DNA of 64,000 bases, taken from positions 1 through 64,000 of the forward strand of contig JAWCSL010000002.1 in NCBI GenBank assembly GCA_039090665.1, read 5' to 3'. Both the position numbers and the translations under genes were made by a program. The notes beneath the pieces were generated by a model, which was not told where the DNA came from, ran no database searches, and saw nothing but the letters and a program-made list of their open reading frames with translations. The DNA is from Candidatus Aenigmatarchaeota archaeon. GTDB lineage: Archaea; Aenigmatarchaeota; Aenigmatarchaeia; CG10238-14; SCSR01. This document shows positions 8,629-31,630 of the stretch, one piece after another; position 1 is the stretch's first letter; every line of letters begins with the position of its first letter.

Positions 8629-8714
8629 TGCCCCCACTGGGATTTGAACCCAGACCAAGAGCTTTTCACTGAAAACCGCAAGCTCCCGTCCTATCCAGGT
8701 TAGACGATGGGGGC
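8629..8714 (-). tRNA. tRNA-Arg(GCG) with 12-nt intron at 37/38 (8664-8675)
   Basis: Acceptor GCCCCCA/TGGGGGC, T-loop TTCAAAT, anticodon stem GGAGC/GCTCT, 74 nt after intron removal; CCA not encoded. Confidence 0.9.
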
Positions 8715-28084: not shown

Positions 28085-29680
28085 CTATCTTATAGCTTCT
28101 TTTAGTTTTTTCAATATTTCTTCTTTCCCCCTTTCAATAATGTAAAACCCAAGCTTTGGGCCACTTTCAGAGTTTAAAATTATCTTGTAAAGAAGCTTAA
28201 AGAAATTTGGTATTTTTATGTCAAACTTCCTTGCAATTTCAAAAATATTCTTTTGAATTTCTTCTCCACTTTCTTCCCTTTCAACAATCTTAATAAGTTC
28301 AGCAATCGCTGCTTTTTCTTTTTCCCCAATTTTAACTTCGACTTCTTCTTTTATCTTACCAAAATCTTCATACCATCTTTTAGCAAATTCTATTCTTTTA
28401 GCAACTTCTTCTTTTATTTTTCCATTTTCTTCTTTCAACCTTCTATATTCTTTCAACTTTCTCACAGCAAACTCAACTTGATCTTTTTCAGGCAAAATTT
28501 TCACTATTTCAACCATAACTTCAAATGGTACATAAACAGAAGAAGCCTCTTTTGGTTTAACAACCGCAAGTTCATAAGCTCTTTTGAAATTGTTATCTTT
28601 CCTCTCATTTCCAGAACTTTGTAGACCAAAATATATCCTTTCAGCTTTATCAAATTCATTCCAAATCGATGGAACCATTTGTTTTAAGTTTATGTCTTTT
28701 GCTATTGTTAACCTTCCTTGAAACATCCAGTACCTCAAATGCTCAGGCTTCATATATTTCAACATATCAGGCACGGTTATAACATTCCCCAAGGATTTAG
28801 ACATCTTTTGCCCATTCACAAGAAAATGTTCATAAACTAATGGATAAGGAGGCTTCCATCCTAGAATCTTTACGATTTCTTTTCCAGTATCCCAGCTTCC
28901 ACCTGCAGCAGCATGCTCTTTTCCAAAAGGCTCACAAGTTGTTTTCAAAATAACCCAACGGGCTGGCCACTCGACACGCCAAGTAAGCTTAGCTTTACCA
29001 TTTAATATTGATGTTTTACCTTTATAGCCACATCCATTAACTTCATATTTTTTCTTTAGTAAAGTAGCTTCTTCCACACACTCATATTCAACACTAGCCT
29101 TCTTTTCTTCATATTTCAAAATTCTTGTGGTGCTTATTTTTCCACATTTTTCACATATTACATCTACCGGATACCAGTCTTCTGGTAGAGGAGTTGTCCT
29201 AAAATTGTTTAGAATTTTAACGATTTTTTCCCTTTTTTTCATAGCAAGTTTAATGAGATTGTTATACATCCCTTTTTTATACATCTCAATTCCTTTCAAA
29301 ATCTTAGGTTCAATTAACAAAGTTTTCAATTGTTGAATGAACTTCTCTTCAAAATGTTCTGCAAAGTTTTTGTGACAACTCCAGAAATCTGGGATAAAAC
29401 AAACAGGCACACCAAGATAATTTACAAGTTCTTTCGGCAAATCTTTGGGCACAGACCTTAGAGGATCCATATCATCAGAAACCCAAACCAATTCAGCAGA
29501 CACTTTCATTCTCTTAAGGGCAAGATAAACCGCATGTCCTCTCACAACATCATTCGCACTGCCTATATGTGGCTCGCCAGACATGCTAGTACCAGTTGTT
29601 ATAACTTGCTTCTTCACTTTCCATTTTTTTACAAGCTCTTTGGCCACTTGATCTGGCCAGAACTCGTATTCTTTTTCCAT
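28085..29680 (-). CDS. lysS: Lysine-tRNA ligase, class I
   Basis: SGEPHIGS, WRVEWPARW, KMSKSLGN. Confidence 0.95.
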   Translation of the reverse strand: MEKEYEFWPDQVAKELVKKWKVKKQVITTGTSMSGEPHIGSANDVVRGHAVYLALKRMKVSAELVWVSDDMDPLRSVPKDLPKELVNYLGVPVCFIPDFWSCHKNFAEHFEEKFIQQLKTLLIEPKILKGIEMYKKGMYNNLIKLAMKKREKIVKILNNFRTTPLPEDWYPVDVICEKCGKISTTRILKYEEKKASVEYECVEEATLLKKKYEVNGCGYKGKTSILNGKAKLTWRVEWPARWVILKTTCEPFGKEHAAAGGSWDTGKEIVKILGWKPPYPLVYEHFLVNGQKMSKSLGNVITVPDMLKYMKPEHLRYWMFQGRLTIAKDINLKQMVPSIWNEFDKAERIYFGLQSSGNERKDNNFKRAYELAVVKPKEASSVYVPFEVMVEIVKILPEKDQVEFAVRKLKEYRRLKEENGKIKEEVAKRIEFAKRWYEDFGKIKEEVEVKIGEKEKAAIAELIKIVEREESGEEIQKNIFEIARKFDIKIPNFFKLLYKIILNSESGPKLGFYIIERGKEEILKKLKEAIR

Positions 29681-29709: not shown

Positions 29710-29854
29710 AATGGGCCCGGAGGGATTTGAACCCTCGACCCTCCGCTTTCTTCTATTAGGAGCACTCCCATATAAGGCGGATGCTCCACCAGGCTAAGCT
29801 TCCCTCTACCAGTTAAGGCAGATACGGGCCCAGCCTAGATTTTCCGGGCCCATT
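29710..29854. repeat. Perfect 12-bp inverted repeat flanking tRNA-Ile (29710-29721 / 29843-29854)
   Basis: aatgggcccgga ... tccgggcccatt. Confidence 0.9.
29712..29831 (-). tRNA. tRNA-Ile(TAT) with two 23-nt introns: 9/10 (29800-29822) and 37/38 (29748-29770)
   Basis: Spliced 74-mer GGGCCCGTAGCTTAGCCTGGTGGAGCATCCGCCTTATAAGCGGAGGGTCGAGGGTTCAAATCCCTCCGGGCCCA folds as a full cloverleaf with discriminator A. Confidence 0.85.
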
Positions 29855-29983
29855 ATCCATGTATATTTTAAATTTCATTTTCCTTCCTTTATATCTTAAA
29901 CCTTAAACATTATAAATAGCAAAAACCTTAAATACTTACAGATAATATAAAAATTAGTCCATTCTTTGTTTGAGGTGTTAAAT

Positions 29984-31630
29984 ATGACAAATGGAAAGGC
30001 TATACTTGGAAGTTTAGGCGGGCAGCCAATACTGATATTGCCAGAAGGAACTATTCGTTCCACAGGAAAAGATGCCCAAAAGAACAATATAGCTGCAGCT
30101 AAAGCTGTTGCAGATGCAGTCAAAACTACTTTAGGTCCAAAAGGAATGGATAAGATGCTCGTAGATTCAATAGGTGACATAGTGATTACAAATGATGGTG
30201 TAACAATCCTTGAAGAAATGGATGTGGAGCATCCAGCAGCTAAAATGATGGTAGAAGTTGCAAAAACTCAGAATGAAGAAGTTGGTGATGGTACAACAAC
30301 TTCAGTGGTTATTGCAGGTGAGCTTTTGAAGAAAGCTGAAGAGCTTCTTGATCAAGATATACATCCCACAATTATCACAAGAGGCTTCAAGATTGCAAAA
30401 GATGAAGCCTTAAAAATACTGGAAGAAATAGCAAAGCCAATAGACATAAATGACACTGAAACTTTGATGAAAATAGCAATGACTTCAATGTCAGGAAAAA
30501 GTGTAGAAAAAGCTTCCCCGAAATTGGCTGAAATAGTTATAGAAGCGGTGAGAAAAGTAGCAAAGAAAGTCAACGGTAAAATTGAAATTGATACAGATGA
30601 CATAAGCAGAGTTAAAAAACATGGGGGTTCAGCAGAAGAGACAGAACTAATAGAAGGAATAATTATCGATAAAGAAGTTGTACACCCAGCAATGCCAAAG
30701 AGAGTTGAAAATGCGAGAATTGCTTTGCTAGATGTTGCTCTTGAAGTCAAAGAACCAGAAACAGATGCAGAAATAAGGATAACTTCTCCAGAACAGATGC
30801 AAGCTTTTCTAGAACAAGAGCAGAGAATGCTTAAAGCTATGGTAGATAAAATAGTTAGAGTTAACGCAAATGTAGTGCTTTGTCAAAAAGGAATAGATGA
30901 TGTTGCTCAGCATTACCTCGCTAAGAAAGGAATTCTTGCTTGCAGAAGAGTCAAACAGTCTGACATGGAAAAACTAGCAAAGGCGACTGGCGGTAAAATA
31001 ATTTCAAATCTCGACGACTTAACACCAGAAGACTTAGGTTTTGCAAAATTGGTTGAAGAAAAGAAAATAGCAGGGGAAGCCATGACTTTTGTTAGGGGAT
31101 GTAAAGATCCAAAAGCAGTGAGCATTTTGGTGAGGGGAAGCACAGAGCATGTAGTGGATGAAATTGATAGGAGCATAGAAGATGCTATAGGTGCAGTTGC
31201 TTCCGCTCTTGAAATTGGAAAAATTGTTGCAGGAGCAGGTTCGGCAGAAGCAGAAATTGCAAAGAGGCTGAGAAAATTTGCTGAGAAATTCTCAGGAAGA
31301 GAACAGTTAGCAATTCTTGCTTTTGCAGATGCTATGGAAGTAATTCCAAGAACTTTGGCAGAGAATGGTGGTTTAGACCCAATTGACACTTTAGTTGAAC
31401 TTAGGGCTGCTCATGAGCAAGGAAAAGTAAGCTATGGAATAAACTTATATGAAGGAAAAGTAGCAGATGCTTTCGAAATGGGAGTGATAGAACCATTGAA
31501 AGTTAAAACACAAGCAATAAAATCAGCAGCAGAAGCAGCAGAGATGATATTGAGAATAGATGATGTGATTGCAGCAAGTAAGCTAGAAAAAAGCACATCA
31601 ACACCACCTTCTACTGAGAGTGAAGAGTAA
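29984..31630 (+). CDS. ths: Thermosome (group II chaperonin) subunit
   Basis: [27 protein letters not shown] gaggtg upstream of ATG 29984. Confidence 0.97.

Follow-up and report, generated by a model that had tools for sequence, protein, structure and literature searches.

Non-canonical BHB introns have been described in tRNA genes of Thermoproteales, Nanoarchaeota, ARMAN and Asgard archaea. They are short inserts with two 3-nt bulges and a central helix of four positions; several of them may interrupt one gene, and their motifs may be relaxed (PMC4090602). The examples lie at positions 20/21 to 59/60 and at the acceptor-stem position 3/4, while 8/9 and 9/10 are not named in the text of that paper as available to us, and the same text describes no cis role of the 5′ leader in folding the motif. 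Intron catalogues may already list 8/9 or 9/10. A census of hidden tRNA inserts in Asgard genomes reports that annotators miss them and that they were gained repeatedly and independently at BHB-compatible sites (bioRxiv 10.64898/2026.10.13.758758). Its main text, in the portion available, pools acceptor-stem and junction inserts as a few 'other' cases and contains neither positions nor the word 'leader'; DPANN archaea are outside its coverage. In split and permuted tRNAs, flanking RNA that belongs to no exon pairs to build the splice site; according to the available parts of two reports, the leader pairs with the other flank and is removed by the endonuclease (PMC3218864, PMC4033280).

The UAU anticodon was reported in 2 of 167 archaeal genomes, with Korarchaeum and Nanoarchaeum as the carriers named in the text available (PMC6000648), and a pre-tRNA-Ile(UAU) accompanied by loss of TiaS has already been described for ARMAN-2. 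In that small-genome archaeon, UAU replaces the agmatidine-modified Ile2(CAU), and the available account gives one 25-nt intron at the canonical position 37/38 that has a strict motif, alongside an endonuclease of three units (PMC3239211). DPANN archaea can also possess a single-subunit EndA with a C-terminal insert, the L3 loop, which has been linked to disrupted tRNAs (PMC5829648, as far as available).

Here we describe a tRNA-Ile(UAU) gene of a Candidatus Aenigmatarchaeota archaeon (genome G000), found in a 64-kb stretch of DNA that was analysed as a whole and is called the window below; coordinates refer to the window unless a locus or contig is named. The gene shares with ARMAN-2 the UAU anticodon in place of Ile2(CAU), the 37/38 intron and a small-genome host, and differs from it in its second intron, its relaxed motifs, its leader elements and its single EndA gene, which encodes a one-unit enzyme. 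As in split and permuted tRNAs, non-exon RNA would pair to build a splice site; unlike there, the leader is in cis and pairs with exon sequence (the D loop and the 3′ acceptor strand), and we propose that it is removed later, by RNase P. PMC8915964 was set aside as a precedent, the misfold in the part available to us arising from a mutation in the tRNA body and not from the leader. Our literature searches returned no description of splicing made possible by a leader in cis that pairs with the body of its tRNA.

From folding models and comparative data, we propose, with a probability of about 0.6, that both inserts are likely cut by EndA and that the 5′ leader folds the RNA for the cut at 9/10. 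If true, this would be a new rule for archaeal tRNA processing: the leader, usually regarded as disposable RNA, would decide where an intron can be placed and would fix the order of events as splicing followed by 5′ trimming. The proposal also bears on how tRNA introns arrive and persist, since intron and leader appear and vanish together among close relatives. On the models, the larger interest would lie in a leader whose presence follows that of the intron and which, by prediction, renders the splice site foldable, and the rare position would be the smaller part.

Gene structure and the insert at position 9/10

The gene occupies 29831-29712 on the reverse strand and consists of three collinear exons and two inserts of 23 nt within 120 nt, which rules out a split or permuted tRNA. 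Exon 1 (29823..29831, -) comprises tRNA positions 1-9 and, once the tRNA is spliced, pairs with the 3′ acceptor strand of the cloverleaf. It is followed by intron 1 at position 9/10 (29800..29822, -), by exon 2 with positions 10-37 (29771..29799, -), which holds the D arm, the 5′ half of the anticodon arm and the anticodon UAU (29774-29772, -), by intron 2 at the canonical position 37/38 (29748..29770, -) and by exon 3 with positions 38-73 (29712..29747, -), which ends in the discriminator A73; CCA is not encoded. When both inserts were removed by script, ARAGORN recognized a tRNA-Ile(tat) of 74 nt in which all four stems are present. A Leu or Ser identity is excluded by the short variable loop of this class I tRNA. 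The motif of intron 2 is relaxed, with three of four central pairs and an offset inner helix; alternative cuts yielding UAA or UGA leave one of four central pairs, versus three of four at 37/38.

Downstream, the tRNA gene is adjoined by an ORF on the same strand (28085..29680, -), which we take from its sequence features to be lysyl-tRNA synthetase. Upstream lies a divergent ORF (29966..31630, +), presumably encoding the thermosome (group II chaperonin), again judged by sequence features. Both served as synteny markers: the synthetase was matched once in each relative, in the congeners next to the tRNA gene, and the start-codon region of the thermosome ORF was found upstream of all seven congeneric tRNA copies.

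An earlier note on this DNA had described a 23-nt insert after A9, and this insert is present at 29822-29800 (reverse complement) with the pairings then listed: G1-U13, G2-U12 and G3-C11 in the outer helix, C4-G, C5-G and C6-G in the central helix next to a G7.A mismatch, and an inner helix of 5 bp. The two bulges are of 3 nt each, lie on opposite strands and carry the junction after their second base. This BHB, described in the note as 'near-textbook', is slightly relaxed, with three central pairs where the strict hBHBh′ definition has four, and G7.A occurs in both G000 and its congener G001. Among 200,000 shuffles of intron 1, 201 reached at least three central and at least five inner pairs in register. 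A cut at 8/9 would give the identical mature sequence with two of four central pairs versus three at 9/10, and cuts at 7/8 or 10/11 would give a wrong mature sequence. The claim that cutting restores the mature tRNA is right as to the product, provided that intron 2 is removed as well. We conclude that the 9/10 insert is very probably a spliced intron. Judged by its sequence, it would belong with the archaeal non-canonical BHB introns in all features tested but the strict 4-bp helix. The earlier reading thus stands as regards a BHB intron at 9/10, but it omitted the second intron, the 5′ leader elements complementary to the tRNA and the recurrence of such introns in the family.

The same note had warned that scanners might miss or truncate the gene, and they did both. 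ARAGORN on raw DNA did not call it, either in the window or, with intron search on, in the genome. The Rfam match covers only 29804-29712 (32.3 bits), begins inside the insert and breaks the acceptor stem. As genes with early inserts are invisible to ARAGORN and truncated by Rfam, the tRNA sets of these archaea are under-called, and the omissions include the sole AUA reader found in a genome with about 4% AUA codons. Four RNA runs, in which the organism may be absent, gave 0 reads on the tRNA; for the chaperonin gene they gave only 71 partial reads, from other organisms.

AUA decoding and processing enzymes

The G000 assembly comprises 620,606 bases and is 90.6% complete. Scanning it for CAU and UAU anticodon arms returned tRNA-Ile(UAU) and one elongator tRNA-Met, with the initiator gene seen separately; neither a second UAU gene nor an Ile2(CAU) gene was found in this 90.6% complete genome. 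TiaS was found at the cut-off in 0 of the 117 genomes of the order, with archaeal controls positive in 4/4. The pseudogene check named in the earlier note, a separate intact AUA-decoding tRNA elsewhere in the genome, therefore favours a real gene. A rough count in stop-to-stop frames of at least 200 codons gave 6,071 ATA among 150,685 codons (about 40 per 1000). tRNA-Ile(UAU) is the only AUA reader found in G000. Since no other AUA reader and no TiaS was found, ATA is common and the enzymes are present, the tRNA is very likely needed, and both inserts must then be removed. These data point to a twice-interrupted gene that is real and probably essential. Across the order, a UAU anticodon-arm pattern matched 41 of 117 genomes, and AUA decoding by UAU looks general there.

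EndA is encoded in G000 by one ORF of 188 aa (L035:1474-2040, -) carrying PF01974 and PF02778, a layout closest to the homotetrameric type. A structural-subunit paralog was not found in G000, where each of the two families gave one match; a divergent paralog could escape this search. Relative to Methanocaldococcus jannaschii 1A79, the protein is longer by six residues ahead of the conserved His, at a site with additional length in ARMAN-2 4FZ2 too, and by about four residues near the N-terminal loop site. By analogy, the six-residue insert is a candidate DPANN L3 loop. A single-subunit EndA with an insert, in a genome with many non-canonical introns, resembles the combination in the available account of DPANN endonucleases (PMC5829648). 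RtcB is present in G000. RNase P RNA is present in G000 and in 4 of 5 genomes tested, and leaderless transcription as in Nanoarchaeum was rejected on these grounds.

The 5′ leader and folding of the precursor

Two elements of the 5′ leader are complementary to the tRNA. Element A (29843..29854, -; tRNA positions -23 to -12) is the complement of positions 64-73 and two trailer bases, with which it forms 12 Watson-Crick pairs, and it includes a copy of the 5′ acceptor strand (positions 1-7). Its duplex has a free energy of -23.0 kcal/mol, a value reached by 0 of 300 shuffled leaders. Element B (29832..29838, -; positions -7 to -1) is complementary to D-loop positions 14-19 and, by pairing with them, lengthens the outer helix of the BHB from the 3 bp provided by the exons to 10 bp.

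A BHB at 9/10 excludes the normal acceptor stem, because positions 1-7 are needed for pairing with the intron and D arm, and the competing acceptor stem is a G+C helix of 7 bp. We calculated free-energy balances (BHB form minus acceptor form) from constrained partition functions of secondary structure. At 37 °C the balance was +11.7 kcal/mol without leader, -0.7 with 8 nt and -9.0 with 25 nt of leader; at 60 °C the values were +11.7, +4.1 and -5.0 kcal/mol. The precursor is thus predicted to prefer the BHB form with both elements and the acceptor-stem form without them.

In the mechanism that we propose, element B would lengthen the outer helix and element A would capture the displaced 3′ strand, shifting the precursor to the BHB form. 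EndA would then cut after A9 and before G10, and RtcB would join the exons. RNase P would trim the leader only after splicing, since a precursor trimmed first is predicted to disfavour the motif by about 12 kcal/mol. Finally, the spliced RNA would refold to the cloverleaf, perhaps through tertiary folding and irreversible RNase P cleavage. This is the weakest step: calculations that contain no tertiary terms place the cloverleaf of the spliced RNA above its leader-bound fold by 11-12.5 kcal/mol at 37 °C and by about 6 kcal/mol at 75 °C, so that the leader-bound fold stays preferred, and the trap in G000 is similar with or without coaxial terms. In 18 of the 23 early-insert genes compared below it amounts to at most 3 kcal/mol, and it is deep (6-12 kcal/mol) in G000, G001 and L036. 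Left unconstrained, the precursor reaches its energy minimum with the 3-bp central helix open and the first intron base paired instead, about 4.5 kcal/mol lower than the BHB ensemble; on this model the enzyme would need to trap the BHB form.

Syntenic copies of the gene were found in 6 of 7 congeners, which makes seven copies including that of G000; G004 gave none. All seven keep a related intron at 37/38. At 9/10, G001 has a homologous insert of 22 nt whose inner helix still pairs despite changed bases, whereas the insert is absent from G002, G003, G005, G006 and G007. The leader follows the same distribution. Both elements occur in the two intron-bearing copies, with counterparts of 10 bp (A) and 5 bp (B) in G001, versus none of the five intron-less copies, whose leaders are A+T-rich and have neither element. 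The exons of G000 differ from those of the intron-less orthologs at few paired positions only.

A tree was built from partial sequences of both flanking proteins, markers linked to the tRNA locus, in 10 genomes. It groups G000 with G002, G007 and G006 (98.5/95) and leaves G001 outside, a split also obtained with the thermosome alone. A topology constrained to unite G000 and G001 was narrowly rejected (AU p = 0.043). As the carriers are not sisters, intron and leader either were ancestral and were lost jointly several times, or moved together. The tree lends modest support to such joint loss or joint transfer.

Early introns in relatives and alternative readings

Introns at 8/9 and 9/10 recur in the host family and are not a one-off of this gene. 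We searched 370 genomes of the class with a D-arm pattern built to reject the usual U8-A9 context. It matched 25 places in 23 genomes: 16 were tRNA genes carrying an early insert, 15 of them from the host family, one was an intron-less tRNA and eight were chance matches. Further patterns, searched in the order (117 genomes) and the family (69) with the first 30 loci of each search taken, contributed more cases and controls, and all census patterns ignored the leader. After parsing, 117 distinct genes remained; in 23 of them an insert precedes position 10, and the other 94 have none there. The parser left out genes with T-loop or D-loop inserts, among them the early-intron genes L046, L049 and a second gene of L110, which by eye have upstream copies. 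Four of four central pairs were present in 17 of the 23 early-insert genes, three in 3 genes and two or fewer in 3. Inserts well assigned to 9/10 occur in 11 genes and fall into five central-helix sequence types that follow the acceptor strand, with all four pairs in 9 of the 11.

Leaders differed strongly between the two groups. The most stable duplex of the leader with either the D arm or the 3′ end reached -10 kcal/mol or lower in 19 of the 23 early-insert genes (8/9 or 9/10) versus 5 of the 94 others, and the leader beat 95% of shuffles of its own composition in 16/23 versus 5/94. The leaders of early-insert genes are richer in G+C (0.34 versus 0.21), a difference in composition for which the shuffles control, and the 23 genes form about 11 related groups, so that gene-level p-values overstate the contrast. 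In a swap test of 19 of the 23 genes (11 groups, the four genes with poor motifs omitted), leaders of intron-less relatives were put in place of the native ones; the gene's own leader favoured the BHB above every swapped leader in 18 of the 19 genes and 10 of the 11 groups.

Three leader designs occur in the family: an acceptor-strand copy, an extension of the outer helix and a blocker of the D stem, and tRNA-Ile(UAU) has the first two. The third is seen at L053:316-334, L023/L069 and L055, where 8-10 nt of the leader are complementary to the D loop and the 3′ D-stem strand; such leaders precede inserts at or near 9/10 in tRNA-Lys and tRNA-Ile. In genus g24, an independent 9/10 intron of tRNA-Ile is present in 3 of 6 genomes, each time with a B-type leader, and the other three genomes have neither. 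In the tRNA-Asn(GUU) genes of genera g6 and g25 (L042-L049), 8/9 introns go together with an upstream copy whose pairing to the 3′ strand equals or surpasses that of the true 5′ strand, the latter containing a G.U pair.

The leader is thus complementary to strands that compete with the BHB and is tied to the presence of the intron, with L079, L055, L161 and the control L110 as exceptions. No gain from the leader was found for L055 and L161, and little over shuffled leaders for L072 and L080 (3/20 and 13/20 shuffles as good). The tRNA-Ile gene at L161:1460-1600 (G025) has an insert of 32 nt bordered by a direct repeat (7 nt) of positions 3-9; no clear BHB was found in this gene at 8/9 or 9/10. 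At L110:1470-1620 (G018), a tRNA-Lys(UUU) gene without early intron has a leader resembling an acceptor copy (-18.8 kcal/mol); possibly the intron was lost and the leader left behind. In its general form, our proposal is that acceptor-adjacent introns persist only with a co-evolved leader switch, which would bind the displaced strands, force splicing before RNase P trimming and be moved, lost or gained with the intron as a cassette, its three designs having evolved repeatedly; for this wider claim we consider the odds to be even.

[quoted passage not shown] Element A does contain a direct copy of positions 1-7, and a published model of intron gain by mobile-element recombination leaves 5′ fragments behind (PMC3293823, as far as accessible). 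Only at L079 does a perfect 9/10 BHB occur without the help of a leader that pairs; this tRNA-Lys(UUU) gene (L079:700-1160, G022) is preceded at about 350 nt by an intron-less 5′ tRNA-Lys fragment that ends after the D arm, for which an integration scar and a split-gene remnant are candidate readings. The scar would also be compatible with our promoter model, an EM motif from 93 control upstream regions, which is too diffuse to place the transcription start: it has no clear modal distance, and its best site falls within -38 to -27 in only 24 of the 93 controls. The form of the elements argues against scars. Element B and the leaders complementary to the D arm (L053, L023, L135, L139, L140) are inverted complements, not direct copies, and element A continues into bases that match the T stem instead of positions 8-9. 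In the tRNA-Asn genes of g6, moreover, where the 3′ strand differs at two bases, the upstream copy has changed along with it and the true 5′ strand has not (L043 versus L042 and L044-L048). The same energetic effect of three different designs also counts against scars.

A more restricted role of the leader, in which only element B is transcribed and relevant and element A lies upstream of the start or is dispensable, appears improbable. The 8-nt leader by itself brings the balance at 37 °C from +11.7 to -0.7 kcal/mol and makes the trap after splicing much shallower, the 9/10 introns of g24 have B-type leaders alone, and a TATA-like box at -41 would let the RNA start near -11, downstream of element A. 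At 60 °C, however, element B alone leaves the BHB disfavoured by 4.1 kcal/mol. Element A is kept as a complement of 10-12 bp in both carriers despite sequence change, and an A-type element (acceptor copy) was found in 13 of the 23 early-insert genes but in 1 of the 94 controls.

We regard as highly improbable a reading that takes the upstream copy for the genuine 5′ exon and the sequence separating the two copies for a further, acceptor-stem intron. The pairing of the upstream copy with the 3′ strand is perfect and in the tRNA-Asn genes of g6 surpasses that of the proximal copy, and such an exon would account for the resolution of the leader-bound fold. By hand, though, no register with flanking helices could be found; a cut at 7/8 alone gives a central helix, from a GGCC palindrome, with neither outer nor inner helix. 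The upstream copies are followed by G, A, C or U and not by U8, and the spacing between the copies varies from 0 to 13 nt. Just as remote is a pseudogene, or an insert retained in the RNA, for which the purine-purine mismatches in both central helices and an AUA reader left unassembled in the missing part of G000 might be cited, against the few exon differences, the preserved pairing of the G001 insert, and the searches that found no other AUA reader in G000 and no TiaS in the order.

Other tRNA genes showed related features. The initiator tRNA-Met gene of G000 (C11, about 1070-1220, -) carries early inserts, and its 7-nt 5′ acceptor strand is found a second time 28 nt upstream. In a Micrarchaeota tRNA-Ile(GAU) gene (L235:251-305), a copy of the 5′ acceptor strand lies 24 nt upstream, with no insert at 8/9 or 9/10. 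A prokaryote-wide scan returned at least 119 stretches; among the 80 stretches listed, 71 of the 81 matches parsed lay in tRNA genes, mostly bacterial ones with a chance upstream match. Short D-loop inserts are found in tRNA-Ile(UAU) of genus g11 and G128, and an insert near 13/14 in that of G012 (L116-L121, L123, L018/L125); by sequence, this tRNA may be a hotspot for independent intron gains. In the window itself, ARAGORN calls a tRNA-Ala(UGC) at 8629-8714 (-) that by eye is better read as tRNA-Arg(GCG) with a 12-nt intron at 37/38 and four of four central pairs, and an intron-less Ala(UGC) gene is present on contig C1 of G000.
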